The notes under the pieces were generated by a model. That model was given only the letters and a program-made list of their open reading frames with translations. It did not search any database and was not told where the DNA came from. A stretch of DNA of 62,459 bases, filler included, from Stramenopiles sp. TOSAG23-2 (Eukaryota): the NCBI GenBank assembly GCA_900128395.1. It is 20 parts of 20 records of this genome, joined end to end, with 100 filler letters (N's around TTAATTAATTAA, not from the genome) between each part and the next. Parts side by side here need not be neighbours in the genome. Positions count along the whole stretch, not along the records: positions 25,972 to 29,112 come from LT651356.1; 19 more parts are not named here. One strand, written 5' to 3'. Shown piece after piece: positions 1,172 through 61,112 of this stretch. Positions within the stretch are counted from its first letter, which is position 1. Each line of letters begins with the position of its first letter. The position numbers and the translations under genes are program-made.

Positions 1172-2611
1172 TTATTGCAAGAAAGTTGATTTATGTTTTC
1201 TCAATCGATCTTGATGTTGATTGCGCAAATTAGTAGGTACTGGTGCTGGCATCGATGTTCCTCGTTTCTGTCTTGTTGGAAAATTTATTGTTTTCTTTTT
1301 CGTTGCTTTTTTTTTGCTTTCATCAATGCCATAATTATTGGATGATGATGAAACATTATTGTTGTCACTGTTATGCAATCTTTGACTATTTAAATTTTGA
1401 ATCTTTTCTTCTAAAAGTTTTTTTTTTAAACCACGATTATCTTTAACAGCTTGTTTCGCCTTTTCAGCCAAATCAGATAAAAATTGTTGTACCAATGTAA
1501 TGAGAACTGATAACATACCCAGCCCGACAGCACAATAGAATACTAGAAAAACATGGCCAGTTGAAGTTTCAGGAAAGTAATCGCCAAAACCAATTGTAGT
1601 CAATGATGTGAAACAAAAATACAACGATTCAATCCATGTCCACTCTCTTCCATGTTTATTATTGATCCCTCCTTCCATATCCGACCAAATAAATACAAAC
1701 GTACCCATTATTAACCAAAAAACAAATAACAATAATGTCGATACTAAACGTTTACGTCGTGCTGAAATTTCTGTTAAATTAAGATGCAATTGTTCACATG
1801 CATCTTGAAATTCTTGAAAATCAACTTGGCCATCATCATTAACATCGACTTCCCTCATAAAATCAAAAAATTGATAATCATCCATCTCAAAACCAAGTTC
1901 TTTTAATGCTAAACGCATCTCGTGATGATCTAATAGGCCGGAACTATCATCATCAAATTCTTTAAATGCATCTTGGACATGATTTTTCCTACCAACAAGG
2001 AGTCTAGCAATTTTATTTAATAACGTTTCTGCTACAACAGATAAACATATTCCTGCAATTGGTATTCCAATAAAACTATACAAAATGCAAAACAACTGTC
2101 CATATGGTGTATGTGGTGTCACTAGACCAAATCCAGTTGTTGTTACAACAGTAAATGAAAACATCCATGAACGACTATAATCCTCAAAATCTCGATATTT
2201 TTCATTTGGATGCCCAGTTAAAAGTGTCAATTCATTGTACAGGTCTGTATCATTTAATTTAACTTTGATACGGTGCATTAACTGCTGGAAGTGGTATCTC
2301 ATCTCTACTTCTTTATCACTTTCTAAATATGAAAAAACAAAAGCACCAATACTGATAATAAACAGTAATAATACAACAACTTTTAATATTCTGAATTCAT
2401 TTTTATGATGCAAAGGTTTCTTATTTACTAATAAAATATCCAAAATATTTTTATCACGAACATTAGTACTATTATTATTCTTATTATTTTCACCAATTGG
2501 TAAAAGTGGATTGTAGTTACTTTTTGTATCATAGTTATTCATTACATCATCGATCTCATCCTCCTCCTCATCGTCGTCATCAAAGTAATCTGAAGTTCCT
2601 TTCAAAAGCAT
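1172..2611 (-). CDS. Two-pore-domain (K2P/TPK-like) K+ channel with an internal EF-hand pair
   Basis: Four TM segments, pore loops TTTGFGLVTP and TTIGFGDYFP, EF loops DDDSSGLLDHHE and DVNDDGQVDFQE between M2 and M3. Start placed at the ATG at 2611; the ORF is open to 2689. Confidence 0.85.
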   Translation of the reverse strand: MLLKGTSDYFDDDDEEEDEIDDVMNNYDTKSNYNPLLPIGENNKNNNSTNVRDKNILDILLVNKKPLHHKNEFRILKVVVLLLFIISIGAFVFSYLESDKEVEMRYHFQQLMHRIKVKLNDTDLYNELTLLTGHPNEKYRDFEDYSRSWMFSFTVVTTTGFGLVTPHTPYGQLFCILYSFIGIPIAGICLSVVAETLLNKIARLLVGRKNHVQDAFKEFDDDSSGLLDHHEMRLALKELGFEMDDYQFFDFMREVDVNDDGQVDFQEFQDACEQLHLNLTEISARRKRLVSTLLLFVFWLIMGTFVFIWSDMEGGINNKHGREWTWIESLYFCFTSLTTIGFGDYFPETSTGHVFLVFYCAVGLGMLSVLITLVQQFLSDLAEKAKQAVKDNRGLKKKLLEEKIQNLNSQRLHNSDNNNVSSSSNNYGIDESKKKATKKKTINFPTRQKRGTSMPAPVPTNLRNQHQDRLRKHKSTFLQ

Positions 2612-3151
2612 GGGAACATATGGTATTATTACACAAGGTCTGCTTCTAGTTACATATTGTTGTTGCAGAAGGAATATGTGTATATGCATACATCTGTTTA
2701 ATATTAAAATTGATTTTTAATATTTTGAAAAGTTCTTCTTTTTATTTTCTTCAACAACAACAACAACAAGAAAAGAAGAAGAAGAAGAAAAAAAGTAATA
2801 TTAATAGTAGCTAGCCTGGCTAGTCGTCTAGCACTCTATAGCAATTTTAAATAAAAAGTATTTTTTATATTTTTTAAAAGAATACACACACACACATGTA
2901 TACACATACAGACCTTACGAATAACAAAAATAATTTCCCCTCTAATAGTGGCAATACCGCTCTTCTCTCCTCTTTGTTAATACCCCTTACAGGTATATAT
3001 TTAAAATTTAAAGAAATATCTTTTCAAGGTATCATATATATATGTCATAATATCTAGATATCTTCTTGATATATATCTAATCACAATTTGAAAATACCTT
3101 TGCCACCCTTAACATATTTTGCCCAGTTTTCACCATACGTATGTACTGGAG

Positions 3152-16985: not shown

Positions 16986-18317
16986 ATGGATCAGTACAGA
17001 GTATTAGATTTAGTCGGTAAAGGCTCTTTCGGTGTTGTTAGAAAAATTCAACGTCGTTCAGATGGACGTATACTTGTATGGAAAGAATTAAATTATGGTT
17101 CCATGAGTGACAAAGAAAAACAGTTAGTAGTATCAGAGGTCAATATACTTCGGGAATTACGCCATCCACATATACTTCGTTATTACGATAGGATCATTGA
17201 TAAACCAACCACGAAACTTTTTGTTATTACTGAATATTGCGAAGGTGGTGATCTAGGCAAACTTATCAAACGATACAGGGCTAAAGCTGGTAAAATTGAT
17301 GAGCAACGTATTTGGAAATATTTTGCACAAATTATTATGGCACTTTCCGCTTGTCATAGACGTAAAGAAAAAGGCATTTTGAAACCAATTTTACATCGCG
17401 ACATTAAACCAGCAAACGTCTTTCTCGACCGACATGGCAATGTAAAAATGGGGGATTTTGGCTTGGCTAGGGAACTAAGTAGCCAATCAAAATTTGCACG
17501 TACAAATGTTGGTACACCATATTACATGTCGCCAGAACAAACGAACGGCTTGAAATATGACGAAAGATCGGATATATGGGCAGTCGGTTGCGTGTTGTAT
17601 GAATTAGCTGCTTTACGACCTCCATTCCAAGCAAGAAATCAAGTTGCACTCGCAATGAAAATCAATGCTGGAAAATTTGATCGCATTCCGATGCATTATA
17701 GTGATGACTTGCACCGTGCAATACGCTGGATGTTGCATATCAATTTGAAAAACAGACCTAGAGTTGAAGAATGCCAAAGTATCCCACAAGTGAAGGCATA
17801 TTACGCATCGCAACAACAAAAACAACAAACAGGAATAGCAGGCAACAACAATGTTAAAAAGGGGAACAGTGTTAAAACTAGTACATCAACTAGTGCATTG
17901 GTTGCACGTGAAAGGAAGGTTTCAGAGAAAGAAATGGAATTATCCAGACGTGAAAAAAAATTAAATGAAAATATTGAAAAAATCAAAAAAGAAGATAAAT
18001 TATTAAAAGAAAGAGAAAGTAATTTAAAACGCTTGGAGCAAAAATTATTAAGATTACAAACAGACTTAACACTTCGCGAGACACGATTAGAAACCGCTGA
18101 AATGGAAATGCGATTAAAGCAACGTACCGCTTCCGTTACAACTTCAAAAACAGCAACAAGTTATTTATCAAATAATAATTATACAACGACAGGACAAAAA
18201 AAAATGGATAGTAATAAATGGGCATCATCGGCAAAACCGTTTGATAACAAAACAAATGCAATGAATTATCATGGTTATAATATTACAAGTGAAACTACAA
18301 AACTAACAGAATTGTAA
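16986..18317 (+). CDS. NIMA-related Ser/Thr kinase (NEK2/NIMA-like)
   Basis: GKGSFG, LVWKELNYGSMSDKEKQLVVSEVNILREL, HRDIKPAN, DFGLAR, VGTPYYMSPE, C-terminal coiled coil. Confidence 0.93.
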   Translation: MDQYRVLDLVGKGSFGVVRKIQRRSDGRILVWKELNYGSMSDKEKQLVVSEVNILRELRHPHILRYYDRIIDKPTTKLFVITEYCEGGDLGKLIKRYRAKAGKIDEQRIWKYFAQIIMALSACHRRKEKGILKPILHRDIKPANVFLDRHGNVKMGDFGLARELSSQSKFARTNVGTPYYMSPEQTNGLKYDERSDIWAVGCVLYELAALRPPFQARNQVALAMKINAGKFDRIPMHYSDDLHRAIRWMLHINLKNRPRVEECQSIPQVKAYYASQQQKQQTGIAGNNNVKKGNSVKTSTSTSALVARERKVSEKEMELSRREKKLNENIEKIKKEDKLLKERESNLKRLEQKLLRLQTDLTLRETRLETAEMEMRLKQRTASVTTSKTATSYLSNNNYTTTGQKKMDSNKWASSAKPFDNKTNAMNYHGYNITSETTKLTEL

Positions 18318-19876: not shown

Positions 19877-21267
19877 ATGTTCATTTTAAATCAATTATCA
19901 TTAGTATTTATATTATTGTTATTATTATTTTCACTATGTGCAACAACAGCAACAACATTTCAACAAGATGAAAATACAAATAATAAATGTGGCATATTGA
20001 ATGTATTAGACTTTGGTGCAAAAGGTGATGGCGAAACGTTAGATACAAGTGCCATACAACATACATTTGATGCTGCGTTGAATAAAATGGGATGTATCAT
20101 TCTATTTCCATCCAACCATGTATATTTAACTGGACCATTTAATATTACTTCAACTGGAAATATTGAAATTCAAATTGAACAAGATGCAACCATTCAATTT
20201 TCAGCAAAACGATCTTTACATCCAAAAATTTTCGATCCACATGTTACAGATAAATTACGTTATCAACCCTTGTTTTTTTGTGAATTCAATTGCCCCAATG
20301 TAAATATTACTGGAGGTGGTACAATTGATGGAATGGGACAAGATTGGTGGGCACCAGTACCAACTGGAATGAAACCAAGTAAAAATTTAAATGCACCAGT
20401 TACTGTTGAATGTACATGGTGTGATAATTTCAATGTACAAAATATATTGATTAAACAATGTCCATTTGTTTGTTTACATATTAATAATAGTACCAATGCA
20501 TATGTTTCAAATATAACTATGACGAATCCAATTGATTCACCGAATACAGCATGTGTATATGCAGATGGTTTAACCAATTCACGTATTACTAAATCAAGTT
20601 TTAGTTGTGGGGATGATCATATTACTGTACTTGCTATGACAACGAAAACGGTAAATATGTTAATTGATGAGTCAGTATTTTATCATGGGCAAGGTTTGAC
20701 ACTAGTAAGTAATATTTTCTATTCCACTAAATCTGAGAAAAAAAGACACCTTCTCTAACACCTATCACACCCATTCATATACGCTATATATGCTTCACAA
20801 CACAGGGATCACAAGTATTTCATGGTATGGAAAATGTTACATGGCGAAATATTAAAATGATTGGTGGATTAACTGGTATACGTATCAAATCACAACGTGG
20901 AAAAGGTGGTGATATTACAGGTTTAGTATATGAAAATATACAATTACGTTCTGTTGGAATTATGGTTAGTGTGGAAATGGATTATCATCATACTGGTATT
21001 GTTAGTAAAAATCCGCCATCCTTTAATGGTGTAATTCTTCGTAACATAACCGGTTGGGGTGATTTAGCTGGATATATTTCCTGTTTACCAGAAAGTCCAT
21101 GTAAAGATTGGAAATTTGATAATGTTTTTCCAGATGGTACCTCTGAAGTTGTGTTACCATACCATTGCAATGATTATTTCATCGATGCTACATGTACCAA
21201 TTGTGGCAGTTGGCCAAAATTATGCAACGGAATGGAAAAGAAGAAGAAGAAGAACGAGATATGGTGA
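19877..21267 (+). CDS. Secreted glycoside hydrolase family 28 (polygalacturonase-like); exons 19877-20704 and 20806-21267
   Basis: Signal peptide, NVLDFGAKGDG, GGGTIDGMG, GDD, RIKS. Removing the GTAAGT...CAG intron (20705-20805) gives in-frame HGQGLTLGS, matching the GHGxSIGS motif. Confidence 0.88.
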
Positions 21268-24246: not shown

Positions 24247-26093
24247 TGGGAAGTGTGTAAAACGAGGGTTTTATACTTGATGTTGAACACATGTTTATAA
24301 TTATTATCAACAAAAGTGTTAAAATAATATACAAGTCGTATATATAGGTTACGTAATATATTAAAAAATTAATTAATAATCCACTATGAAAGGTAAAAAA
24401 ACAAAAAAGAAGCGGACAAAGAAGAGGATATAATGGGAAGTGTGTAAAACGAGGGTTTTATACTTGATGTTGAACACATGTTTATAATTATTATCAACAA
24501 AAGTGTTAAAATAATATACAAGTCGTATATATAGGTTACGTAATATATTAAAAAATTAATTAATAATCCACTCACAATGGTTGTTTAAATTAAAGTAATG
24601 ATAATAGTGTAAACGTTTTATTTCTGTTTTCTTCTTTTTTTTCTCTTCCCGGCAAAATGCAAGCAAAAACCGGCCCCTATACCATATCTCAACACAAAAA
24701 TTTGATGAAAAAATTTAATGATGAGCACATGATGATGACAAAAAAATGTACCCAATCAAAACCGTTTACACAAACCAAAAAATGATACAATCAAAAATGT
24801 AGAACACACACATGTACACACATTTGTGTTTATAAACACAACGATTTACATTAAATATACACACATTCCACATATATATATATAATAAATATATTATAAT
24901 ATACATATATTATGTTCTATCAAACGATGTATATTTTAACTGTTTTGATTTTATTATCATTATTAGTAATAGAAATTAACTCTCAAGGTACATTTGTACA
25001 CAGTGATCTAGGAGGGCACATTGTTACTAATCAAATTAAATTTCCAAATATCGTCATCATTCGTTCCTGGACTCTTACGAAGATGTGGTGGGATATACTT
25101 TTTTGTTTTCGACATGTTTGTATTGTATATATGGACGATAAATCGTATATGTAAAAATTGATTTGATCGAAATAATAATATGTCGTCTTTGTTTAAACTT
25201 GATATGATTTTTGAAAAATTATTAAAAAATATCGATATGTAAAACGTATATTAATTGATCGTTTGAATATATATATATATAATATCAACAAATATAAAAA
25301 GAATAAAAAAGGAAAGGATATTGTATTATTATAGAAACGTATTTGAATATAATGATAGTAATACGATAAAAGATGTTTTGAAATCTATCTATCACTCGTG
25401 TTTATCTCTCTCTCTCTCTTTCTATTTTTTCTTTTTATTCTTCATTGAAATGTGTACTGTATATATACTATTACATGTAATAATATTATAAATGACATCG
25501 ACAAAAAGACGACGGATCACAATTCCCGCGGGGGCAGTCGTGCATAAATTTACCTTAACCTTTTTTTAGTTTTTACTCCGCGGTCGTGCAGTCGTCGCTA
25601 AAAATCAAATTAGTATTCTTTAATGAATTTAACTATATGCCACTTGCAATTTGATAGGGCCCATTCTAAATTAATAAAATAATAATAAAAAATAAATTTT
25701 TTTTTTTATAATAAATAATAGTGCAATACTTGTGCACTTCTTACTATTAATAGAATTAATGAATTTGTATTTATATTAATATATATCTACAAAAATATTA
25801 TATATATACATTTGTAAGTACTTAGTTGTTGTAAGAAACAATTTCCTTTTTATGGCTTAATTGAATAATCANNNNNNNNNNNNNNNNNNNNNNNNNNNNN
25901 NNNNNNNNNNNNNNNTTAATTAATTAANNNNNNNNNNNNNNNNNNNNNNNNNNNNNNNNNNNNNNNNNNNNAAATTTATAAAACACAAAATCTTGTGTAC
26001 ATACGAAAGCAAATCACCCACACCCACATTACACTCTATAGACATGTGAAAAATGTGTGCGTGTGTGATTTTTTTAATTTCCCCTCTCCATTT

Positions 26094-29060
26094 TCAAACT
26101 TCTAATAATTTCGTTCCTTTCAATTTTGTAATAACAGGTTTAAATATTTCATCCATCTTTTTCATCCATATCTTACGTTTACTCACTGAATGAATTTCTT
26201 TTTTCAATTTTTTAATTTCTTTCTTTTTAAATACCCGAAACCATTTTCTCATAACATCCATTGCATCTACTAATTCTACTAAATCTTTCGTTTCCCATGC
26301 ATCCGTTTCACCTTTAACCGTTTGTAATAATGCTGGATCTCGGCGATAAATTTCTGCATCCCATGGTCCAGTAGGTGCATGGTAACCACTACGCTTTGTT
26401 TCATCTACAACTATTCCTTTATCACCACCTTTTGGTTTCACTTCACATCCACCGCAATCTTTTAAATACATCAAATCAATTTTAAATGGATTGCAATCAA
26501 TTTGTGGTTTACCAATATCTGCATTTACCATATTATGTAATTCACAAATCCATGTGGATAATGCTCGACGATTTTCCACACGTGGTGGACCTAATGATGG
26601 TTCGCGTAGCTGTTGTTGCAAATGTTTCCGACATAATTTACAGGGATACAATTGCCCAAATGCAGCAATTAAATTAGTCATTGCTTGCCTATCTTCAGGC
26701 GATGGATGTTCTGGATATTTTGCTGCAAAACTATGTAACACAAACCATGCACGCCGGCCTATAAATTCACGCCATGAACCACCTTTTGAACCATATTCTT
26801 CAAAAAACTTTTTTTCCCGTTTCTTCGTTTCAATCTTTCCATTTTCACCAATATTAATTTCCTTAATAGTATCTCGATCGAATAAATCAAAATCGTTTCC
26901 ATGTGCTTGTACAAACCGTTTTGTCAAATCTTCTCCATGCTTTACATGTATTGGACCACCGGGATGGATAGGTATGAATTCTGTTAAATCATAGGTACGA
27001 TCTTTGACTATAGCATGAATACGCTTTTCTGATGATACGCCAGTGTTGATATCATTTTTTTGTTCCTTAACATGGTTAATATTTGCCGTGGTCGTTAGTA
27101 ATTGCAAATCATCATCAATGGAAAGAATTCGATTATTATTGTTGCTTTTCACCGTTTCCTCTTCCCCGATAAAATGTTCATTTGCATTAGTAATAATTGA
27201 ATTTGCAGCTGCTAAACCAAAGACAACACAATCTAATAAAGAACTACCACCTAAACGATTTTCACCATGTACACCACCCATGATCTCACCTGCTGCATAT
27301 AAATTATTGATTGTTTCGTTCTTTTTATTTAATACGGCACCATTTGGATTTACCATTAATCCACCCATCGTATAATGTAAAACTGGTTCAACGATACCGA
27401 CATAATATGTACCTTTTAATGGTAATTTCGTTGAAACTTTACGATCAATACTCGAAAGGTTGTTCGTCGTGTCTTGAAATGTTTTCTTTAAATTGCTTAA
27501 AATCATCTCATCTTTTCCATCTTCATTCAATCGTTCTTTCACATAGTTTGCTACTCCTTCATATCCTTCAACTGGATTTAATAATCCTTTCCCAGAATAA
27601 ATCTGAATATGCGCATCAATTATTGGCGCTGCATGTGGTGGCACTGCAATAACAAATTTTTCTTGTTTCAATGAATTCATAACATTCACTACTTCTTTCC
27701 GTGTTTTTAATTCGTCAATGAAACGTTTGCCATGTTTTTCAATTAATACAGCACCAGCTCCTCTCACAATTTCTGCACATAATATTAATGATCGATCGGA
27801 TCCTTCATCCATAAAACCTTTTGGTACATCACTAAATCCAGTCGGATGCACTTGTACCATATCTAAATCAATCGTCTCAGCACCAATTGCACGGCCTAAT
27901 TTGATACCATCACCAGTAGCAAATTTGCCATTAGTTGATCCAAGTGTCTGTAATTGTGGCGCAACTTCATTTAATAATGAATGTTCACCTTTATCATTTG
28001 CATAACCACCAGTTGCTAAAATGACAGATGATACTTTAATTCCATATTCTTCATTGTTACTACTACTTAATTTTTGTTGTGTTTGCTCTCGTTTCAACGT
28101 TAATGCCCATCCCAAGTTGTTATTATTTTCATTTTTATCATCATCATCGTTATTTATACATTTTTTATCATCATTTTCATCACAAACATTGGAGGCAAGT
28201 GTGTTGTTGTTATTGTTATCATAGCTACTTGCAAAAATTTCTTCCATGCCTATTAAACGATGCCCTTTTAATACAGTTAGCAATGAATCATCGCCTTTTG
28301 AATATTTCATAACATTGCGTTCTAAACCAGAAATAAATGCAGCACCAGCCAAACGACCACGTGGACGATGTGTCCTTGCTTGACTGTGACCTCCTAACTG
28401 CCCAACATCAGGCAATTCAACATTCGATCTAGATGCAATCCATTCCACTGCTGTTTTTGAATCATCTGCCATTCTACGGACAAGTTTACCAGTAAAGCTA
28501 TTATCCGCACGTTTGGAACTATCCATGGTATCTTTATATAATATATCCGGCTTATCATCAATACCTAAACTTTTTTGCTTCTCTGTCGTACAACCATTTA
28601 TTCCAGAAGAGGCTTTTGCAGAATTACCACCCATAAAAGGTTGCTTCTCAATTAATAATACACGTTTACCTTTTTCTAATAATCGCAAAGAAGCAGTTAA
28701 ACCAGATAAACCGCCACCGATAACAGCTACAACATTTACAATTGGTTTATCTTTTAGCATATTTAAACTTTTTCCTTCACCAACAATTGTTTCTGCTGTT
28801 GTCGTTGTGCTTATTTCATTTAATGCTTGTTCCAACATGATTTTTAGTTTATTTACATCTTTCGTCGATGCTATGTTTTTTACAAGATCAAGTTGAAATT
28901 TAGCAAACTTTTCGTTTCGATCGTTAGATTCTTGCAATGATAATGACGTATTATCACCATCGCAATGTACAAAAGACGTGGTTATAAAACCTACTAATAT
29001 TGTTAATATTAAAAAGTAATATGTGTTATTATTATTATTATTTCTTCCTTTTATTGACAT
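26094..29060 (-). CDS. Fusion: signal peptide + FAD-dependent fumarate reductase (Osm1/flavocytochrome c type) + cytochrome b5 + Erv/ALR sulfhydryl oxidase
   Basis: VIGGGLSG, GGNSAKASSGING, GGHS, ATGG, QVHPTG, EIVRG, DELKTR, HYTMGG, GENRLGGSSL; then YDLTEFIPIHPGG...FVQAH; then GRRAWFVLHSFAAKYP, YPCKLCRKH, WICELHNMVN..IGKP..DC and CGGC. One uninterrupted 988-aa ORF inside one contig. Confidence 0.92.
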   Translation of the reverse strand: MSIKGRNNNNNNTYYFLILTILVGFITTSFVHCDGDNTSLSLQESNDRNEKFAKFQLDLVKNIASTKDVNKLKIMLEQALNEISTTTTAETIVGEGKSLNMLKDKPIVNVVAVIGGGLSGLTASLRLLEKGKRVLLIEKQPFMGGNSAKASSGINGCTTEKQKSLGIDDKPDILYKDTMDSSKRADNSFTGKLVRRMADDSKTAVEWIASRSNVELPDVGQLGGHSQARTHRPRGRLAGAAFISGLERNVMKYSKGDDSLLTVLKGHRLIGMEEIFASSYDNNNNNTLASNVCDENDDKKCINNDDDDKNENNNNLGWALTLKREQTQQKLSSSNNEEYGIKVSSVILATGGYANDKGEHSLLNEVAPQLQTLGSTNGKFATGDGIKLGRAIGAETIDLDMVQVHPTGFSDVPKGFMDEGSDRSLILCAEIVRGAGAVLIEKHGKRFIDELKTRKEVVNVMNSLKQEKFVIAVPPHAAPIIDAHIQIYSGKGLLNPVEGYEGVANYVKERLNEDGKDEMILSNLKKTFQDTTNNLSSIDRKVSTKLPLKGTYYVGIVEPVLHYTMGGLMVNPNGAVLNKKNETINNLYAAGEIMGGVHGENRLGGSSLLDCVVFGLAAANSIITNANEHFIGEEETVKSNNNNRILSIDDDLQLLTTTANINHVKEQKNDINTGVSSEKRIHAIVKDRTYDLTEFIPIHPGGPIHVKHGEDLTKRFVQAHGNDFDLFDRDTIKEINIGENGKIETKKREKKFFEEYGSKGGSWREFIGRRAWFVLHSFAAKYPEHPSPEDRQAMTNLIAAFGQLYPCKLCRKHLQQQLREPSLGPPRVENRRALSTWICELHNMVNADIGKPQIDCNPFKIDLMYLKDCGGCEVKPKGGDKGIVVDETKRSGYHAPTGPWDAEIYRRDPALLQTVKGETDAWETKDLVELVDAMDVMRKWFRVFKKKEIKKLKKEIHSVSKRKIWMKKMDEIFKPVITKLKGTKLLEV

Positions 29061-29440: not shown

Positions 29441-31399
29441 TTATGATTTTTGCTCATCGTCAATTGCTTTACCTTGCAAAACTTGTATTTTCTGAAGATC
29501 ATTTTTCAACGAGACATTCTCAGGATCCAATTCCAAAGCATGGCTTAAATCATCCAAAGCCTCATCATATAATCCTAATTTACTCTTTGCTGTTGCACAT
29601 CTAGCCAACGTCTTAACGGACCACATATTGAATCGCGTAGAACCTTTTTGGGGCAATGGACCGACCGGATTAATGTCTCCAATATTTTCAACGTTTTCAA
29701 TTACACCTAATAAACCTAATGCCTTTTTACAATCTTCCACTGCAGCTTCCCATTTTCCCAAAGCTAATTGAACACTAGCTCGATTGCTTAAAACGGATAC
29801 GTAGCCAGGTTCAATTGCCAATGCTTCTGTATAATTTTCAAGCGCTTCTTCAATTTTTCTTTCTTTGAATTTTCTATCTGCAGTCTCCTTCAAGATTGCA
29901 CAATTATTTAATCTCCTAATCATATCTAAATCATCCCACAACGGATCCAATGGTATTTTACCTTTTAAACCTTCATGTAAACCAGTTAAACGTATACCAT
30001 CTTCATAATTTTGTATTGCTTCATGATATTTTCCAAGTTTGCAATATGCACTACCTAAACGAATAAGTACCTTTACCCGTAACCTTTGTGATTTCACATC
30101 CTCACGCATCTGCTTCGCCGTCATTAGCTTTCGTTCTGCAGGTGTCGTACCTTTAACCTTTTCTAGAAGGGTGGTACAATCTTCGACACATTTGTCGTAA
30201 TTATCTATCTGCAACCAACAATTCGATCGATTGGATAATGCAGGAAGCATTGTTGGATCAATATCAATTGCTGCAGAATATGCATTAATTGCAGATTTAT
30301 AATCTTTTGCACGAAAAAAATCATCTCCCTTCCCTTTTATCCAAAATGGATCACGTTCACTGATATCTCGAGTATCACCAGGTTTACGTTTTTCCCCAAG
30401 TCTACGCCCAACATGACTCGCGTTCTTTGCTAACCAATCTTCTTCTTCTCTAGTCTTCGATTCACGCAAAGGTGTCGGAAAGAACCTTTCCGTATGCTTA
30501 ATTTGAATTTTATGAGTTTCACGTGGTGCTGGTATATATTTAATATCATCATCGTCATATTCTTCTTCCTCATTATTGACGACTTCCTCTTCTACACTTG
30601 TATCAATCTTTTTCTTTTCATCAGTGCCATCATCAATATCATCTTCACCAAAAATATCACTTGTCGATGTTATTACATCACTATTATTATTATTATTTTT
30701 ACTAGTAGTAGTATTGCTACTATTATTTTTCGTACTATTATTATTGTTATTTTCCTCCTTTGCAATTAATTTAATATCATCACTATCTATACTACTATCA
30801 GTGTTTTTTTTGGAAGATACTTTCGGTTTTGATGCTTTTCCTTTGTTTTTTTGACGTTCCCTTTCTTCCATTTCCAACTCTTTGAATCGTTCATACATTT
30901 CTTTCTCTGCTTTAGTTTTTTCTTCTTCCTTTAACTCTTCAATATTTTGCCTTTCCCCTTCTTCCAAAGCCATTTGTTTACGTAAAGTCATTTTTTCATT
31001 TGCCCGACGTTTATCTTTGATTAATTCTTTGAGTTCCTCATCTCGCTTTCGTTTACGTGCCATCGCATCTCCTCTTCTTTGGTTGATAAACTTCTTTTTT
31101 TCAGTTTTATTCAAATTATCATCCGTTATTTTAAACATTAAATCTTTCCATTCTTGTGGTGTTTCTTTTGGCAACGTTAAATGTAATTGTCCGTCACGTT
31201 GGTCAAATCGTGCAACACACTTTTCATAGTTAATTTTATCATGTAAGTCAATTGCTAGTAAATATGGCGAAAAGTTCACTTTTAGAAACAGATCAGATAT
31301 GTATATGTCAACAGAAGTCTTTGCAGTGCCTTTCAAAGCGACATGAATCATTACATTTTCCCTGGTTTGCTCCCACGTATATGCAGCTGATATAGGCAT
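29441..31399 (-). CDS. DNAAF4: Dynein axonemal assembly factor 4 (DYX1C1): CS domain, coiled coil, TPRs
   Basis: MPI..YTWEQT...LKG...D.FLKVNFSPYL CS domain; FPTPLRESK..EEEDWL and ERDPFWIKGKGDDFF signature; C-terminal TPR repeats. Confidence 0.88.
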   Translation of the reverse strand: MPISAAYTWEQTRENVMIHVALKGTAKTSVDIYISDLFLKVNFSPYLLAIDLHDKINYEKCVARFDQRDGQLHLTLPKETPQEWKDLMFKITDDNLNKTEKKKFINQRRGDAMARKRKRDEELKELIKDKRRANEKMTLRKQMALEEGERQNIEELKEEEKTKAEKEMYERFKELEMEERERQKNKGKASKPKVSSKKNTDSSIDSDDIKLIAKEENNNNNSTKNNSSNTTTSKNNNNNSDVITSTSDIFGEDDIDDGTDEKKKIDTSVEEEVVNNEEEEYDDDDIKYIPAPRETHKIQIKHTERFFPTPLRESKTREEEDWLAKNASHVGRRLGEKRKPGDTRDISERDPFWIKGKGDDFFRAKDYKSAINAYSAAIDIDPTMLPALSNRSNCWLQIDNYDKCVEDCTTLLEKVKGTTPAERKLMTAKQMREDVKSQRLRVKVLIRLGSAYCKLGKYHEAIQNYEDGIRLTGLHEGLKGKIPLDPLWDDLDMIRRLNNCAILKETADRKFKERKIEEALENYTEALAIEPGYVSVLSNRASVQLALGKWEAAVEDCKKALGLLGVIENVENIGDINPVGPLPQKGSTRFNMWSVKTLARCATAKSKLGLYDEALDDLSHALELDPENVSLKNDLQKIQVLQGKAIDDEQKS

Positions 31400-49136: not shown

Positions 49137-51002
49137 ATGCTTCGCACTGCTGTACGATCGATATTGAGAAAGAACAATACGAAACAACAACAACAGAATG
49201 TATTGAAAAAAATGAATAATAAAAATTATACAACATTGTTAAATAATAATAGCAATAGGATAAAAAATAATAGTAATAGTAGAAACATGATTTATAACCA
49301 AATCAATAATATGAATTCTGTTTCTAGAGTTTTAGGCACCACCAGCCAAATGCATAATAAAAGAATGTATCATTCTATTGACGATAGAGCACCTGTTATT
49401 GATGGGAATGTTGATAAAAATGAAGAAGCTTACAAAAAAAATTATGAAGATATGACTGCAGTTATTAACCAGCTAAGAGGTGATTTGGATACTATTAAAC
49501 AAGGTGGAGGTAAGAAAGCACGTGAATTGCACACTGGAAGAAACAAAATGTTGGTACGCGACAGGATCGATACATTGTTGGACCCACAATCACCATTTCT
49601 TGAATTATCACCTTTAGCTGGTTGGGAATTATATGATGGAGAAACAATTCCATCTGGTGGTGTTGTTACTGGTATTGGACGTGTTGCAGGGCAAGAGTGC
49701 ATGATAGTTGCAAACGATGCGACCGTGAAAGGTGGTACTTATTACCCGATCACAGTTAAAAAACATTTACGCGCACAAGAAATTGCTGCAGAAAACAATT
49801 TACCATGCATTTATTTAGTAGATAGTGGTGGTGCATTTTTACCAAAACAAGATGAAGTCTTTCCAGATCGTGATCATTTTGGACGTATATTTTACAATCA
49901 AGCAAATATGTCTGCAAAAGGCATACCACAAATTGCAGTTGTAATGGGTTCTTGTACGGCTGGTGGTGCGTATGTACCTGCAATGAGTGATGAAAGTGTT
50001 ATTGTGAAAAAAAATGGAACAATTTTCCTTGGTGGACCACCATTGGTCAAAGCAGCTACTGGTGAAATTGTATCCGCAGAAGATTTAGGAGGTGCAGATG
50101 TTCATTGTAGAACAAGTGGTGTTACGGATCATTTTGCAAATAACGATCAACATGCATTGCAAATTGCACGAAGAATCGCGAAGAATTTAAATCGTCGTAA
50201 AGAACCAAATTTAAGTTTAAATGCAAATTATGACGAGCCACTTTATTCAGCTGATGAATTACGTGGTATTGTGCCATGTGATTTGACAAAAACATTTGAT
50301 ATACGACAAGTTATTGCTAGAATTGTGGATGGTAGTCGTTTCGATGAATTTAAAAAATTCTATGGTACGTCTTTAGTGACAGGTTTTGCTGAGATGTATG
50401 GCATGCCAGTTGGTATTGTTGCAAACAATGGTATTTTATTTTCAGAAAGTGCAGTAAAAGGCGCTCATTTTGTCGAGCTTTGCAGTCAACGTGGTATACC
50501 ATTGTTGTTTTTACAAAATATTACTGGATTCATGGTTGGCAGAACATATGAAGCTGGTGGTATTGCAAAGGATGGTGCAAAAATGGTAATGGCAGTTGCA
50601 TGTGCAAATGTACCTAAAATTACTTGTGTAGTTGGTGGTAGTTATGGTGCTGGAAATTATGGTATGTGTGGTAGAGCATATTCACCACGTTTTATGTACA
50701 TGTGGCCAAATTCACGCGTTAGTGTTATGGGTGGTGCACAAGCTGCAACAGTTTTATCCACAGTAACACGTGATGGAAAAGAACGCAATGGAGAAGAATG
50801 GAGTGCAGAGGAAGAAGAGAAATTTAAAGAGCCAATTGTATCGAAATATGAGCATGAAGGGCATCCATATTATGCAAGTGGTCGTTTATGGGATGATGGT
50901 GTTATTGAACCGGAAAGTACACGTAGTGTTATCGGTTTAAGTTTAAGTGCTGCATTAAATCAACCAATTGATGATACTAATTTCGGTGTGTTTAGAATGT
51001 AA
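49137..51002 (+). CDS. MCCC2: Methylcrotonoyl-CoA carboxylase beta subunit, mitochondrial
   Basis: [58 protein letters not shown]-terminal FGVFRM; presequence-like N-terminus. Confidence 0.96.
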
Positions 51003-55291: not shown

Positions 55292-58135
55292 TTACATGAT
55301 GGTCTTTACATCCATTGGTTGCATTGTTAATTTAGGAGGGGCTAATGCACCTTTTGCTGCTTTAGCTGGTGCCTTCCATTTTTCTTTCTCATCATCATTT
55401 TCCTCTTCTCCTTTATTCTTCAATTTTTTATCCAATATAATACCTTCTCCACCGCTTGCGCCACTTGCGCCATCTTTCTTTTCTTCATCTTTTTTCTTTT
55501 CGTCTTTCTTTTCATCGTCATCTTTCTTTTTATCGTCACCTTTCTTTTTATCGTCATCTTTCTTTTTATCATCATCACCACCATCTTTCTTTTCATCTTT
55601 GTCATCTTTTTTCTTTTCGTCTTTTTTATCTTTTTTGTCCTCTTCTTTCTTCTCGTCTTCCTTCTTGTCCCCTTCGCTACCACTAGCACCACTGGAATCA
55701 CTTTCTGGTCCACTAACACCTAATATTTTTTCTAACTCGCTAACTTTCTCATGCATTTTCATCAATTTGCTTTTAGCTGGGCCGGATGCTCCAGAACTAC
55801 CGGAACTACCACTTTCTTCGCTACCCGATGCACCACTTTCTGCACCACTTTCACTACCAGATGCGCCACTTTCACTACCAGAGGCACCACTACTACTACT
55901 ATCATCAGGACCTGATGCGCCACTTTCACTACCAGATGCACCACTGGAATCACCTGGCAATCCAGTCAATTTCAACAATGATTTTGCAATCTCGCGCAAT
56001 GCTTTTGCATCTTCACTTTCATCTTTACCATCTTTTTCAAGTCCAGTAGTAGAATCAGCGGTTGCTAACTTACGAGCGATTTCCATCAATGCTTTGCTAT
56101 CTTTTTTATCGACTTTGCCGATTTGTTTTGCTATTTTTTCGATAGCTTTTGAATCTTCAAATGGCTGTTCATCACCTGGTGTTTGTGGTTCTGCACTTCC
56201 GCTAGCGCCACTAGCACCACTGCCACCTTTTGGTGTTCCCATGCCATCCATTCTAGATGCAATTAAACGTAAGATGGTACCGTCGGTGATACCATTGATT
56301 GGTGCGCCGCCACTAGCGCCAGATGCACCAGAGCTTCCACTACCATCTTCCTCTGGTCCGGATGCACCAGATTCTGATCCACTAGCACCACTAGAACCAC
56401 TTTTACCGTACAATTCTTCTTCTAATGCTTTTAATTTCTTATCGACTGGGGTTTCACTTCCTGATGCGCCACTTTTACCGGCACTACCAGATGCGCCACT
56501 TTTACCGGCACTACCAGATGCTCCACTTTTACCTGCTGCGCCAGGGCCAGATGGACTAGCTCCACCAGATGCACCAGCAGCAGCTTCTTTTTCTGCATTT
56601 GCATCTTTATCTGCTTTCATTTTCCCATGTTCTTTCTCCATTTTTTTAACCGCACTCCACACTTTGCCTGGAGAGTCCGCATCGCCTTTTTTATTGAAAA
56701 CTGTTGTTACGGTAGAAGTTGCACCATCGGAAACAAATGTACGGGTCAAAGATTTCATTGCTGGGCCGGAAGCACCAGATTCAGCACCAGATGCACCACT
56801 TGCATCCGCATCTTCATCTTCCTCAGCACCGCCACTTGCACCGGATGGAGCAGTAGCATTTTTCTTTGGTCCACCTAACATTTCTCTTGCCATTTTAGCA
56901 ATACCTGCCATGCGTTTCTTTAACACTTCGAATGGTGTCAGCTCGGTGCTATTACCAGCATCGCTTGGACCACTTGGGCCACTGGAAGCAGCAACTGCTT
57001 CAGCTGGACCACTAGCGCTAGCGCTACCACTTGCATCGCCTTCAGCACCACTTCCATCACTGCTGCTTGGTGCAACACCTAACGCAACGTCTAAATCATC
57101 ACGTGCCTCGTTTGCTTTTTCTAATTTTTCTCCAACGGCAGTTCCCAATTTATCTAATTCTGGGGTTGCCCAATTTGGTTGTTCTTTCTCGTCCTCTTCT
57201 GGTGGTGTTTTATTTGGATCTTTTTCAACAAACGGTTTTCTGCCTGCTTCTGCTAATTGAGCATTTAATTTCTCCAACAATACACCTTTACGTCCTTTTA
57301 AAGCTTTAATATATTTTTTCAAATGAATACCTGCTTCAGCGGCAAGACCAGTTGTTCGTAATTTTAATTGAACATGTTTATCTTCACCTTTCGTAACTGC
57401 ATCTTTTGCCAATGCACTAACGTGTGCACCAATGGCTAACATAGCTTTCAGCTGTGCTTTGGAAAGTTTCAATTTTGCTTTTGCTAAATCATATGCTTTA
57501 CGTGCAACTTTAATACGTTCATCACGAATACCTTGTAGTTCATCCACAGCAGCTTGATATACTAAACATGCTTTCTTTTGTGTAACAGTTGCTTTGTCTT
57601 TGACTTTTCTCAATGCTTTTACTTTTGGGCGCATACTCAACGTTTTTTTCGTATCTTCTAATGCAGTTTCCAAATTACCAAGGACCATATCACCAGCTGC
57701 TTCTTTTTGATCAGTATGTGCATCTGATATACTCATATGCGCAGTTTTTAATTTAGCTAATAAATCTTGACGTTCATCATCCCACGCTTCCGTAGCATTT
57801 TGTAAAAACTCATTTGCATGGTCACAAGCAATTTTAGTAATTTCCATTTTAGCTTTTGCACCTGCTAATTCAGGATCTTCTGGTTCAGCAAATGGTACAA
57901 CCGTATCATTCACAGGGCCAGTCGCTGCACCAGTCGCTGCGCCAGTTGCAGCTGCACCAGTTGCACCAGTTGCTTTCTTCTTCTTCTTTTTTGGTGCTTT
58001 CTTTGCAGCAGCTGGACCAGACGAAGCTTTTTCAGGTTCATCTACATCTTCCGCTTCATCTGTTTCTACAAAGGCAAATTGATACGCTGGTTGTGCTTTT
58101 ACACCTAATGCCGTGTTTTTCTCTTTGTCTGGCAT
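55292..58135 (-). CDS. Low-complexity Ser-Gly-Ala repeat / coiled-coil protein (probably 5' incomplete)
   Basis: 947-aa ORF: Ala/Lys coiled coil, many SGASG/SGP units, Lys/Asp-rich tail. It starts 10 nt from the contig edge. Confidence 0.75.
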   Translation of the reverse strand: MPDKEKNTALGVKAQPAYQFAFVETDEAEDVDEPEKASSGPAAAKKAPKKKKKKATGATGAAATGAATGAATGPVNDTVVPFAEPEDPELAGAKAKMEITKIACDHANEFLQNATEAWDDERQDLLAKLKTAHMSISDAHTDQKEAAGDMVLGNLETALEDTKKTLSMRPKVKALRKVKDKATVTQKKACLVYQAAVDELQGIRDERIKVARKAYDLAKAKLKLSKAQLKAMLAIGAHVSALAKDAVTKGEDKHVQLKLRTTGLAAEAGIHLKKYIKALKGRKGVLLEKLNAQLAEAGRKPFVEKDPNKTPPEEDEKEQPNWATPELDKLGTAVGEKLEKANEARDDLDVALGVAPSSSDGSGAEGDASGSASASGPAEAVAASSGPSGPSDAGNSTELTPFEVLKKRMAGIAKMAREMLGGPKKNATAPSGASGGAEEDEDADASGASGAESGASGPAMKSLTRTFVSDGATSTVTTVFNKKGDADSPGKVWSAVKKMEKEHGKMKADKDANAEKEAAAGASGGASPSGPGAAGKSGASGSAGKSGASGSAGKSGASGSETPVDKKLKALEEELYGKSGSSGASGSESGASGPEEDGSGSSGASGASGGAPINGITDGTILRLIASRMDGMGTPKGGSGASGASGSAEPQTPGDEQPFEDSKAIEKIAKQIGKVDKKDSKALMEIARKLATADSTTGLEKDGKDESEDAKALREIAKSLLKLTGLPGDSSGASGSESGASGPDDSSSSGASGSESGASGSESGAESGASGSEESGSSGSSGASGPAKSKLMKMHEKVSELEKILGVSGPESDSSGASGSEGDKKEDEKKEEDKKDKKDEKKKDDKDEKKDGGDDDKKKDDDKKKGDDKKKDDDEKKDEKKKDEEKKDGASGASGGEGIILDKKLKNKGEEENDDEKEKWKAPAKAAKGALAPPKLTMQPMDVKTIM

Positions 58136-58765: not shown

Positions 58766-61112
58766 ATGTCGACATTTACAACAAATAAAAACATGATACA
58801 TGACGATCTATGTATTGCTACACGCATACATTCAATGCCGAAAAATACAACTTCATTTAAAAATGATTTAAAAACTTTTATTGAAAACGGTATTACATAT
58901 TCAAACGCAATTTTAATTGCAGTAAAGGCAAATATTGCTGATTTCAGGGATAATCACAATGAAAATAATCTATACAAGGTATCAATGTCTGTAGTTGCTA
59001 ATCTTTCGAGGGATATCGAAACAAAAATTACCATCTTACCAATTTTAGACTGGGGTGTGTTTACGACGGCATTAAATACACTATTATTACGAGCGGGTAA
59101 AATGAAAGGTATGAAATATATTTTATACAAATCATTCGAAGTTCGTATAAGTCAAGAGGATGTGAACATTTTGAGGAATGAATTAAAATTTGGTGATACG
59201 TTAGTTGCTGGAGGAAGGTTAGAATGTCATGATTTCAAATCTATATGCAATCAACATCAAGATACTCTAAGAAGTAGAAGAAGTAATTATATTACAAATA
59301 TCAATGGTCGAACCGTTCCATGGAATACGTAAGTATATACATCATATATATCTTATTGTTATTTTTATAGCATATTTGCAATATGAAACAAACCGGATAC
59401 TCACAATAATACACTTATAAAATAATCAAAAATCAATATACTAACATATTATATATTTACAATTCATGATTCGTCGACACGACATGTTGTATCAAAAAAT
59501 ATATGATTTTTTATTTAGATGTGCAATGTGGAACATACGATTGTTATCGAAAACAGGATTTCAAATGATCAGTGATGGTCTTATATCAGGGCATGGTGTG
59601 GAAGAAGTGGTTACAATATCGGTGTTGCAACAATTGCACGAAGACAATGAAGCAAAAGCTAAATTATTAGAATTACAATCAATTGTATGGAAAACGAAAT
59701 TTGAAAATAACATTGGTCGCCAAATTGCACATCGGAAGAAAATGATTTCAAAATTGAACCGCGCAGAAAGCCAAATGAAGCATTTTTCAAATTTAAATCC
59801 TGGAACGGTGGAACATGTACAATATCAGAAAAAGGCACGATATGACAATGTTCAAATCGGATTTAAATGGGGGGAAGATTCATCCTCATTGTGCGAAGAG
59901 AAGAAAATGGAAGTAGAAAATACCACTATGCGAAATGCAATGGCTCATTTAGAGGAAATACCTCGTGTTATTAAAGCAACTATTCCAAAAAACGATTCGT
60001 TTGATTCGATACGTCAAATTGATGAATATGTTGAAGTGGGAACATCCGAAAGTGAAGGCGAAGAAGAGAAAAAAGAAACTAAGCAACAACACTTATCGTA
60101 TCCATCCAAAGCAATACTCAACATGACATCTTGTGTAGGAAACGGAAAGACCATTTTATTGACCGGGGGTGCTGGTTTCATCGGTTCCCATACATGCGCT
60201 GAATTGTTAAAACGTGGTGACAATGTCGTTGTTGTTGATGAGGTGAATGATTATTACGATGTGTCCCGTAAAAAAAATAATCTGGAATGGCTAAAAAAAA
60301 TAAGTTTAAAATCAAAAGGATATTTCGAATTTATCAAAGCAGATATATGCGACAATGTAGCCATGGAGACGGCATTTGAACGGTATCAACCCACTCATAT
60401 AATACATTTAGCTGCAAGAGCAGGTGTACGCGCATCTATAAACGATCCGTTGACATATGTACATAGCAACGTGCGCGGCACAACGACATTATTGGAATTA
60501 GCGAAGAAATACAAATGCAAGCATTTTGTATATGCATCTAGCTCAAGTGTCTATGGTGGGAGTGAAAATGAAGTATTTCGTGAAAGTGATGTAGTCAATG
60601 CTCCTGTATCCCCATACGCAGCTACGAAAAAAGCATGTGAATTGCTTGCCAGCACATATACGCATTTGTACCAATTGCCAACTGCCGGTTTGCGTTTTTT
60701 TACCGTCTACGGTCCACGTGGTAGGCCAGACATGGCACCTTATAAATTTTTACATCGTATATTCAATGATATAACAATAGATCAATATGGCGATGGGACA
60801 AGCGAGCGTGATTACACATATGTTGGCGATATTGTTGATGGTGTAATACGTGCATGCGATAGGCCGCTTGGATGCCAGGTATATAATTTAGGAAATGGGC
60901 GCCCAATATCGTTGAAACGGTTCATACAAATTGCAAGTACTTGTGCTGGTAAAAATGTGAAAATTAACGTATTGCCAATGCAGCCTGGAGATGTACCACG
61001 CACTTGTGCTGATATTTCAAAAGCGTCAAAATTATTAGGATATCGACCTAATGTTAAATTTGAAGATGGGATGAAGATTACTGCAAAATGGTACAGAAAC
61101 ACATTTATGTAA
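58766..61112 (+). CDS. Unknown N-terminal domain fused to a UDP-glucuronate 4-epimerase-like SDR; exons 58766-59328 and 59519-61112
   Basis: GTAAGT donor at 59329, CTAAC at 59442, first downstream AG at 59517-8; splicing gives in-frame VPWNTCAMWN (718 aa). C-terminal half has TGGAGFIGSH, HLAARAGVR, ASSSSVYG, YAATK, RFFTVYGPRGRPDMA. Confidence 0.82.

Follow-up and report, generated by a model that had tools for sequence, protein, structure and literature searches.

The stretch of DNA considered here (the window) comprises 62,459 nucleotides, filler included, from Stramenopiles sp. TOSAG23-2, and consists of 20 parts of the genome assembly GCA_900128395.1 joined end to end. The minus strand of an N-free part of this window carries one ATG-initiated, stop-free open reading frame (ORF) whose 988-amino acid (aa) translation is referred to as P0001. 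From the N-terminus, the protein is composed of a signal-like segment, a soluble fumarate reductase (FRD), a cytochrome b5-like domain, an Erv/ALR sulfhydryl oxidase domain and a conserved C-terminal tail (Table 1). The three-domain FRD-b5-Erv protein is real, and the fusion is expressed as one colinear RNA. The combination suggests that these protist cells can form disulfides by passing electrons to fumarate, not to O2. An original prediction, made from the DNA alone, had described a single 988-aa ORF with no gap or duplication. The ORF listing and the translation bear this out, with no internal duplication or gap found in P0001.

Table 1. Features of the window. Positions count along the whole window and residue numbers refer to P0001.
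Feature	Position	Strand	Basis or remark
Whole ORF, 988 aa + stop codon (P0001)	26094..29060	-	ORF listing, translation, colinear RNA-library contigs
N-terminal signal-peptide-like segment, residues 1-33 (hydrophobic core 14-31, then VHC/DGD)	28962..29060	-	Kyte-Doolittle, AF2
N-terminal helical hairpin, residues 43-88, conserved, without family	28797..28934	-	AF2, alignment A1
Osm1/Fcc3-type soluble fumarate reductase domain, residues 107-632, predicted FAD-binding	27165..28742	-	Pfam, PDB matches, Foldseek
Asn/Asp-rich low-complexity insertion in the FRD clamp region, residues 283-335, lineage-specific	28056..28214	-	Alignment A1, pLDDT
Cytochrome b5-like haem domain (putative), residues 677-745, axial His candidates H699 (HPGG) and H720 (AHG)	26826..27032	-	Pfam, phmmer
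Erv/ALR sulfhydryl-oxidase core, residues 762-867	26460..26777	-	Pfam, PDB sequence and fold matches
Cysteine pair C869-G-G-C872, distal, located in a flexible stretch just past the Erv core; candidate shuttle disulfide	26445..26456	-	Alignments A1 and A3, pLDDT
C-terminal helical bundle, residues 898-983, after G898-P-W900-D...Y905 motif, conserved, no known family	26112..26369	-	Two models
CS + TPR protein	29441-31399	-	Directly upstream of the fusion ORF in the joined stretch, same strand; parts need not be genome neighbours
Protein kinase	16986-18317		
GH28-like protein	19877-20758		
EF-hand K+-channel-like protein	1172-2689		
Methylcrotonyl-CoA carboxylase beta	49137-51002		
NAD-dependent epimerase/dehydratase	59466-61112		

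The FRD domain of P0001 is recognized by the Pfam family FAD_binding_2 (8.1e-57, 193.7 bits), with Rossmann matches starting at residue 111 and the best stretch running to residue 608. The sequence VIGGGLSGL is found at residues 113-121, and the families DAO and NAD_binding_8 match at 111-152. The dinucleotide-binding GxGxxG fold is thus accompanied by full-length flavin and clamp domains. The closest sequence in the PDB is yeast Osm1 (5glg, 6.5e-73), followed by Shewanella Fcc3 (1qo8, 9.8e-54), and the predicted structure superposes on Osm1 5glg over 534 columns with a template modelling (TM) score of 0.90 on the target (Foldseek). The catalytic motifs are QVHPTG (H405), EIVRG (E430/R433), DELKTR (R454), HYTMGG (H562) and NRLGG (R602). 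In HMMER alignments these six residues fall on H365, E378, R381, R402, H504 and R545 of Fcc3, which we take to have substrate-binding and proton-delivery roles. Mutants of H365, E378, R381 and R402 are named in PDB titles, and R454 is aligned to Osm1 R326, an alanine in PDB 6ku6. All six are invariant in the 17 full-length fusions that make up alignment A1. The claim that the Fcc3-type catalytic set is intact therefore stands, given this alignment to Osm1 and Fcc3 and the invariance in 17/17.

In two regions the FRD domain differs from sequences with which it was compared. The low-complexity insertion in the clamp region is matched by a gap in most of the 16 remaining rows of A1, and its predicted local distance difference test (pLDDT) values in the AlphaFold2 (AF2) model fall below 50 at residues 287-294 and 300-304. 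The other is the second, free-flavin pocket of Osm1, described in part of PMC6242907 as lined by nine residues. These were mapped onto the HMMER alignment, and four of the nine are identical in P0001 (K149, S151, L427, Y488). Osm1 W295 is replaced by Ser and P162 by Ala, the W295 region adjoining an alignment gap. This divergence from Osm1 is only suggestive. H484, I487 and Y488 (Osm1 N359, F362 and Y363) are invariant across the fusion family, and a remodelled electron-entry site may be present here.

The cytochrome b5-like domain is detected by the Pfam family Cyt-b5 at residues 677-724 with 26.7 bits (5.7e-6) against a cut-off of 23.7, and the homologs P0005 and P0009 score 35-36 bits. The phmmer alignments place H699 and H720 on the ligand positions of cytochrome b5 4b8n (1.8e-5), of 1sh4 and of the flavocytochrome b2 haem domain 3ks0. 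The expected pair of axial histidines, one within an HPGG motif and the other some 22-24 residues further on, is therefore present, with H699, P700, G701, G702 and H720 invariant in 17/17 rows of A1. This matches the pairing of HPGG with the His of FVQAH that had been read from the sequence.

The Erv/ALR core is covered by the family Evr1_Alr over residues 770-860 (2.8e-26, 92.1 bits, profile positions 2-89 of 93). It carries an active-site C807-K-L-C810, a structural C839-X16-C856 and the FAD-site residues W772, H776, H842 and N843, with C839 lying in the sequence WICELHNMVN. Among PDB sequences, ALR 3mbg (6.3e-22), Erv1 4e0h (2.1e-20) and Erv2 1jr8 match P0001, and ALR 3o55 matches the Erv core with 1.1e-22; by sequence this core is closest to ALR/Erv1. 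An end-to-end alignment with ALR sets CKLC on CEEC and C839...C856 on the C-X16-C of ALR. Residues 745-988 were also modelled separately (pLDDT 83.2). This model resembles Erv1 3w4y (Z 16.6), Erv2 1jr8 (Z 16.1, root-mean-square deviation of 2.0 over 105 residues) and AtErv1 2hj3 (TM 0.89). The residues W772, H776, C807, C810, C839, H842, N843 and C856 are invariant in the 17 rows of A1, the cysteines also in A3, an alignment of 41 rows. A whole-profile helical-bundle core, a flavin-adjacent CxxC and a CX16C are thereby present, and the assignment of an Erv/ALR domain with a CKLC active site is borne out by the Pfam match, the ALR/Erv1 matches and the invariant cysteines.

A second cysteine pair, CGxC, follows three residues past the last helix of the Erv core. 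C869, G870 and C872 are invariant in 17/17 rows of A1; in A3, C869 is invariant and C872 at least 90% conserved. The pLDDT is below 50 at residues 868-887, in line with a mobile arm. The shuttle disulfide of Erv2 and plant Erv1 is C-terminal, where CGxC sits here, and that of yeast Erv1 is N-terminal. P0001 thus has the second cysteine pair on a flexible arm that is typical of Erv enzymes, and C869/C872 would presumably act as the shuttle.

The remainder of the protein, residues 873-988, is a family-wide extension that contains the G-P-W-D...Y motif and a three-helix bundle, the bundle having a block pLDDT of 85-96 in both models. The tail has no PDB sequence match, and its fold matches are generic helical ones with Z of at most 5.2. 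It was considered as a degenerate Erv/HRR pseudo-dimer partner of the kind seen in QSOX; this is unsupported, and the QSOX rows align to the Erv core only. In Erv enzymes a homodimer or pseudo-dimer allows the shuttle arm to reach the active site; that the tail could take on this role is speculation. The N-terminal hairpin is formed by helices 43-65 and 69-88 (block pLDDT 86-89), with L72, L76 and L80 conserved in A1, and it is also found in P0130, a variant that lacks the FRD. Searches of PDB sequences and folds returned no relative for either this hairpin or the C-terminal extension.

The full-length AF2 model of P0001 was built from a 66-row alignment and has a mean pLDDT of 81.5 and a predicted TM score of 0.68. 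The b5 domain lies about 45 residues downstream of the FRD domain and about 16 residues upstream of the Erv core. As the linkers 636-647, 657-676 and 752-767 have pLDDT below 50, the haem domain is pictured on a long tether from the FRD and a short one from Erv. A predicted complex of FRD (104-632), Erv with tail (746-988), haem and b5 (668-745) had a score of 0.00; it was run without controls and speaks neither for nor against docking of b5.

All motifs named in the original prediction occur in the translation of P0001. Its DNA ranges for the three domains correspond to residues 107-623, 680-733 and 763-860, within a few codons of the Pfam domains. PDB sequence matches of this strength are not expected by chance. 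Its three-domain reading holds with respect to the protein, the fusion, the invariant residues and the precedent in yeast. The distal CGxC, the C-terminal helical tail and the standing of the protein as a member of a small family were not part of that account.

The fusion is shared by other organisms. When 5.8 billion clustered proteins were searched, PF00890 and PF04777 (FRD + Erv) occurred together in 21 of the 120 best homologs, at 45-99% identity. A fusion peculiar to this one sequence, which would have spoken against the prediction, is not what was found. Seventeen of the 21 are complete or almost complete in length (801-988 aa; 45-99% identity). They include P0006, a transcript from a cultured organism in MMETSP annotated 'type:complete' and carrying FRD + Erv, and P0005, an FRD + Erv protein of Triparma laevis with the UniRef name 'Sulfhydryl oxidase'. 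Shorter pieces come from Triparma columacea (P0270) and a MAST-3 coding sequence (P0132), and the remaining family sequences from EukProt, MMETSP, JGI, ENA and Logan. A HMMER scan of 1.84 billion representatives at 50% identity returned three full-length members (P0012, P0014, P0018) and approximately 20 fragments. As the family collapses to three full-length representatives, it is a compact one. The FRD catalytic residues, both haem histidines, CxxC, CX16C and the distal CGxC are all invariant in 17/17 rows of A1. Together with the RNA-library contigs and the single FRD clade described below, these homologs show the FRD-b5-Erv fusion to be real and under selection. Two members, P0009 and P0020, have two tandem b5 domains inside the full fusion.

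The Protein Atlas returned clusters of FRD-b5 and ERO1-FRD-b5 proteins, none with Evr1_Alr. This silence is not evidence of absence, since the fusion family probably falls under the 50-member threshold. Erv domains of this subfamily, at 49-62% identity and retaining CGxC and part of the tail, are also found in P0283, P0285, P0289 and P0281, where they follow two thioredoxin (Trx) domains in a QSOX-like arrangement and, in one case, EF-hands. Since it is found behind both Trx pairs and EF-hands, this type of Erv appears to be a mobile module in protist secretory redox proteins.

Evidence for expression was drawn from Logan contigs of RNA libraries over the N-free stretch, a source in which DNA carry-over is possible. 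The stretch that encodes the fusion is present in 19 of the 21 public runs listed, 14 recorded as RNA, from 10 studies, all marine or seawater. Four runs from four studies were aligned in detail (X1, X5, X7, X8). A 2303-nucleotide contig of the oligo-dT transcriptome X7 matches 26086-28388 colinearly and without gaps, at 13 mismatches. From the stop codon it runs through the tail, Erv and b5, takes in both linkers and around three quarters of the FRD, and so crosses both domain junctions. In X8, from a second study, a 1089-nucleotide contig over 26059-27147 covers Erv, b5 and the end of the FRD and crosses the b5-Erv junction, with more contigs tiling up to 28980. X1 covers 25979-26911 plus scraps and adds nothing on the FRD-b5 junction. 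X5 contains 0.72 of the words, yet aligns in just three short pieces at 90-95% likeness, and gives no support for that junction. The first 80 bases, with the start codon (28981-29060), are covered by none of the four runs.

No intron-like joints were seen in these four runs, one in X1 aside. The X1 joint skips 26229-28121 with 21-letter sides and 58 foreign letters, and was rejected as an artefact of low-complexity sequence. At 27055-27061, in the FRD-b5 linker, seven T in a row (seven A on the coding strand) read as eight in the low-depth X8 and as seven in X7. The original prediction had named a b5-Erv junction left unspanned by reads or transcripts as the sign of a chimera; contigs of both X7 and X8 span it. 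A chimera is ruled out by these colinear, junction-crossing contigs and by the fusion homologs.

A strongly hydrophobic segment (2.0 or more) after a short n-region begins 14 of the 17 full-length members, in keeping with the N-terminal hydrophobic signal claimed for this protein; the three exceptions look N-terminally incomplete. In P0001 the best 12-residue Kyte-Doolittle window reaches 2.74 at residue 16, residues 14-33 read YYFLILTILVGFITTSFVHC, and residues 1-45 have pLDDT below 50 in the AF2 model. No later transmembrane-like segment was found by Kyte-Doolittle analysis in family members besides the Rossmann strand. One of the QSOX-like relatives P0283, P0285 and P0289 has an N-terminal hydrophobic stretch. 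A location in the secretory pathway is favoured because of the hydrophobic N-termini and the QSOX-like Erv relatives.

A parallel fusion joins the same cassette to a different disulfide-generating enzyme. The ERO1 domain is carried by four of the 120 best homologs and by all four long representatives picked from the 50%-identity scan. P0001 itself has no PF04137 match in Pfam and is not an ERO1 protein. The domain order in Pfam is ERO1-FRD-b5 in all eight proteins tested (P0047, P0093, P0099, P0106, P0143, P0144, P0146 and P0151), P0106 being that of the labyrinthulid Hondaea fermentalgiana. These proteins are 998-1312 aa long, most with signal-like N-termini. The Atlas lists an ERO1-FRD-b5 cluster of 58 members (ERO1 on 100%) and a cluster of 1171-aa FRD + b5 proteins with 98 members, the few named ones diatoms. 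The 58- and 98-member clusters are labelled Chlorophyta and Bacillariophyta.

A tree of FRD domains was built with IQ-TREE from 51 rows: 17 Erv fusions, eight ERO1 fusions, 15 FRD-b5, nine FRD-only and two bacterial outgroups. It is a quick tree without bootstraps, and its root is set by the two bacterial rows. The FRDs of the Erv fusions form one clade (Shimodaira-Hasegawa-like approximate likelihood ratio test of 100) on a stem of 1.34 changes per column. Those of the ERO1 fusions group elsewhere, in a clade (96) that also takes in six FRD-b5 rows, and fungal FRD and FRD-b5 rows form a third. The fungal FRD-b5 protein P0029 has the same FRD-b5 order as both fusions. As they belong to different FRD clades, the Erv and ERO1 fusions are read as separate events on a shared FRD-b5 cassette. 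Each of the two flavoenzyme families that generate disulfides in eukaryotes has therefore become linked to this cassette. The Rosetta-stone logic, by which fused domains point to a functional partnership, is strengthened by the independent ERO1-FRD-b5 fusions.

We consider it probable, with moderate confidence, that P0001 is a thiol:fumarate oxidoreductase of the secretory pathway, a soluble, signal-bearing flavocytochrome with three predicted redox centres. Reduced proteins resembling protein disulfide isomerase (PDI), or substrate dithiols, would reduce the mobile distal CGGC (C869/C872). This pair would exchange with the active-site C807xxC810 beside the flavin adenine dinucleotide (FAD) of Erv. 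The Erv FAD would then hand on its electrons to the b5 haem (H699/H720) in one-electron steps. From there they would reach the FAD of the FRD, as happens from the haem domain of bacterial flavocytochrome c3, and fumarate would be reduced to succinate at H405/E430/R433/R454/H562/R602. The net outcome would be a disulfide formed without use of O2 and without production of H2O2. We infer that the cofactors are loaded, that electrons take this path from such a thiol donor to fumarate, and that the protein works in this location.

The individual steps have precedents in yeast. According to PMC5638582, electron transfer from Erv1 to Osm1/fumarate is about as efficient as that to cytochrome c, a haem protein that Erv1 reduces. 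PMC6242907 describes the FAD of Ero1 as passing electrons to Osm1/fumarate. In both sources, fumarate is proposed to replace O2 as the final acceptor of Erv1 and Ero1 by way of Osm1. The yeast precedent invoked at the outset, Osm1 taking Erv1 and Ero1 electrons to fumarate, is as these passages state it.

With respect to energetics, a typical b5 haem lies near 0 mV, against about -150 mV for the FAD of Fcc3, and the fumarate/succinate couple at +30 mV. Electron transfer from thiol to fumarate is favourable overall. Reverse electron flow was rejected: fumarate/succinate at +30 mV cannot drive the reduction of disulfides.

Several points weigh against a secretory thiol:fumarate oxidoreductase. 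The b5 match is weak at 26.7 bits and takes in only positions 10-61 of the 74 in the profile, and binding of haem by this domain is deduced from two conserved histidines. The step from haem to FAD may be uphill, as the b5 potential lies above that of the Fcc3 FAD. No member ends in KDEL or HDEL; retention in the endoplasmic reticulum (ER) is therefore not indicated, and the protein could reside in the Golgi or vacuole or be secreted. According to part of PMC5638582, the ER-like N-terminus of Osm1 also directs mitochondrial import. The supply of fumarate in the ER lumen may be a weak point. The fusion gene is found in seawater and marine RNA libraries with no hint of an anaerobic niche; avoidance of peroxide is, speculatively, a more likely selective benefit than anaerobiosis. 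The family also includes P0130 (442 aa), composed of a signal, the N-terminal helix, two b5 domains and Erv, with no FRD. It is either a real FRD-less gene product or a faulty model, and if it is real and full-length, b5-Erv can use another acceptor. As to expression, the contigs come from RNA libraries in which DNA may be carried over. An X8 contig also has an extra T in the 7-T run at 27054 that shifts the frame; it is read as a homopolymer error or a minor variant because X7, of higher depth, agrees with the window.

The competing explanation that survives best leaves the protein as it is and changes the wiring. The b5 haem would be an exit to an external acceptor (another cytochrome, Fe(III), or O2 through the haem), or Erv would use O2 while the FRD independently re-oxidizes free flavins or serves lumenal redox balance, a role proposed for Osm1, the fusion only co-localizing the two. 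The haem module is variable and can sit with Erv alone, as seen from P0130 with no FRD and from P0009 and P0020 with two b5 domains. The flavocytochrome b2 haem domain, which aligns to the b5 of P0001, has its exit to cytochrome c. That Osm1 oxidizes free FAD, flavin mononucleotide and riboflavin, as part of PMC6242907 reports, would suit an independent FRD; the free-flavin pocket of Osm1 is, however, kept at only four of nine residues in P0001, with the W295 region adjoining an alignment gap. The same FRD-b5 order in fungal FRD-b5, in the ERO1 fusions and in the Erv family points instead to b5 as a dedicated partner of the FRD, and co-localization alone hardly accounts for disulfide generators having been fused to FRD-b5 twice independently. 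We regard such wiring as unlikely, while allowing it an appreciable chance.

The FRD-like domain could also reduce some other alpha,beta-unsaturated acid, as the family includes urocanate reductase. The urocanate reductase 6t85 is a clear relative (4.2e-37 by sequence, TM 0.82), and the long stem of the Erv-fusion FRD clade, at 1.34 changes per column, leaves room for a change of substrate. Osm1 and Fcc3 are nonetheless the best FRD matches by sequence and by fold, and the residues at the fumarate-binding and proton-delivery positions of Fcc3 are all invariant, so that a different substrate has a small probability.

A similarly slim chance is given to a fused Erv1-Osm1 unit for import of the MIA type in the mitochondrial intermembrane space (IMS). 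The Erv core is nearest by sequence to ALR/Erv1, which are IMS enzymes, and flavocytochrome b2, also of the IMS, contains a haem domain of the b5 type. Against this location, P0001 resembles Erv2 and plant Erv1 in its C-terminal shuttle pair, whereas in yeast Erv1 the pair is N-terminal. Within the Erv subfamily, the closest free-standing relatives are fused to PDI-like Trx domains. Osm1 is dual-targeted in the account given in part of PMC5638582, with an ER-like N-terminus able to direct it to mitochondria; the N-termini of this family, with their short n-regions, have the look of ordinary signal peptides and not of bipartite presequences.

An artefact of assembly or gene modelling, in which neighbouring FRD-b5 and Erv genes were wrongly joined, is scarcely credible: beyond a general risk it can point only to the extra homopolymer T at 27054 in the low-depth X8 contig, against one uninterrupted frame, a 2303-nucleotide oligo-dT contig across both junctions and 17 full-length homologs in the same order from independent sources, a complete transcript from a cultured organism among them.

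A thiol:fumarate oxidoreductase of the secretory pathway would have wider consequences. A broader extension is put forward tentatively: in marine protists and algae at large, de novo disulfide formation in the secretory pathway might be hard-wired to fumarate through two independently evolved machines: FRD-b5-Erv, in this organism and in stramenopile and other relatives, and ERO1-FRD-b5, in labyrinthulids and in the Atlas clusters with diatom and chlorophyte labels. H2O2-free folding might then be widespread even in oxic water, with b5 as the general entry port of eukaryotic soluble FRDs and Osm1 as the exception. The Erv and independent ERO1 fusions to FRD-b5 provide evolutionary evidence that the coupling is real, selected and widespread outside fungi. 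P0001 would be a self-contained enzyme, and a single purified protein would allow measurement of the whole path from thiol through disulfide, flavin, haem and flavin to fumarate. If true, the proposal would revise the view that oxidative folding in eukaryotes necessarily yields one H2O2 per disulfide. The uncharacterized b5 domain that most soluble fumarate reductases of eukaryotes carry would gain a role, and a compact module would become available for the O2-free production of disulfide-bonded proteins.

The rest of the window is gene-dense, AT-rich (GC content of 0.24-0.43 per 2 kb) and apparently intron-poor. Among the neighbours listed in Table 1, none has an obvious redox link to the fusion. 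For the methylcrotonyl-CoA carboxylase beta gene, the closest named matches are from dictyostelids, oomycetes and bacteria at 68-72% and do not inform on lineage. At 55292-58135, the most GC-rich part of the window (0.43), two ORFs of 947 aa (-) and 654 aa (+) overlap on opposite strands. The region contains tandem repeats with short units (9-36 bp), and no Pfam family matches the minus-strand ORF. It is probably a low-complexity, repetitive coding region.

The family sequences are public under automatic names such as 'Sulfhydryl oxidase' and 'flavocytochrome c'. In open-access full texts, with subscription journals and supplements outside the scope, no description was found of an FRD-Erv fusion, of ERO1-FRD-b5 or of the FRD-b5 cassette, and the suggestion that this architecture had not been characterized agrees with that literature. 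The passages of PMC5638582 and PMC6242907 use 'fusion' and 'fused' for laboratory constructs only and leave cytochrome b5 unmentioned. A passage in a 2022 Plant Cell paper (PMC9516139) states that no such alternative system had been identified in Arabidopsis. Yeast has already provided both the chemistry and the partnership; what appears to be undescribed is their union in a single chain bridged by a haem domain, and the spread of this architecture among marine protists.

Thiol oxidation is coupled to fumarate reduction in other systems as well, one of them the archaeal thiol:fumarate reductase. In Escherichia coli, DsbB anaerobically uses menaquinone and fumarate reductase (PMC5638582, introduction), a route that resembles the proposed one in coupling thiol oxidation to fumarate reduction without O2. 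Both differ from P0001 in that they are built from unrelated proteins, are quinone-mediated or rely on Fe-S/CCG domains, and are membrane-bound or cytoplasmic.

With Shewanella Fcc3 (1qjd, 1qo8), P0001 shares a soluble, single-chain FRD, a covalently attached haem domain that would feed the FAD, and the His/Glu/Arg set. Fcc3 differs in having an N-terminal tetrahaem c domain and a donor in the respiratory chain, whereas P0001 has a single C-terminal b5-type haem and an Erv donor in the same chain. The Erv/ALR enzymes (ALR 3o55, Erv1 3w4y, Erv2 1jr8, AtErv1 2hj3) have in common with it the full core, the CxxC, the CX16C and the four-helix bundle, and Erv2 and plant Erv1 also have a distal cysteine pair in a flexible C-terminal arm. 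Unlike them, P0001 is fused to FRD-b5 and carries a conserved helical tail of about 90 residues without a known relative. Instead of O2 or free cytochrome c, its own haem would presumably accept the electrons.

QSOX is likewise a natural fusion of an Erv domain with a redox partner in the secretory pathway, and the protist Trx-Trx-Erv proteins share the Erv subfamily at 49-62% identity. P0001 has no thioredoxin-family match at E of 0.01 or less in Pfam and is not a QSOX. QSOX fuses the donor (Trx) and still uses O2, whereas P0001 fuses the acceptor side, haem and FRD. The ERO1-FRD-b5 proteins come closer in design, with the same FRD-b5 cassette joined to a disulfide-generating flavoenzyme. They differ in that the ERO1 partner is N-terminal, the FRD is of another clade and the b5 is canonical (65-76 bits, against 27 in P0001).

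The nearest functional parallel is the yeast system of Osm1 with Erv1 in the IMS and Ero1 in the ER, as set out in parts of PMC5638582 and PMC6242907. Osm1 is the best match of the FRD, with the same catalytic residues and the same proposed chemistry. In yeast the proteins are separate and electrons pass between them by direct contact or via free FAD, Osm1 being without a haem domain; in P0001 one chain comprises FRD, b5 and Erv.

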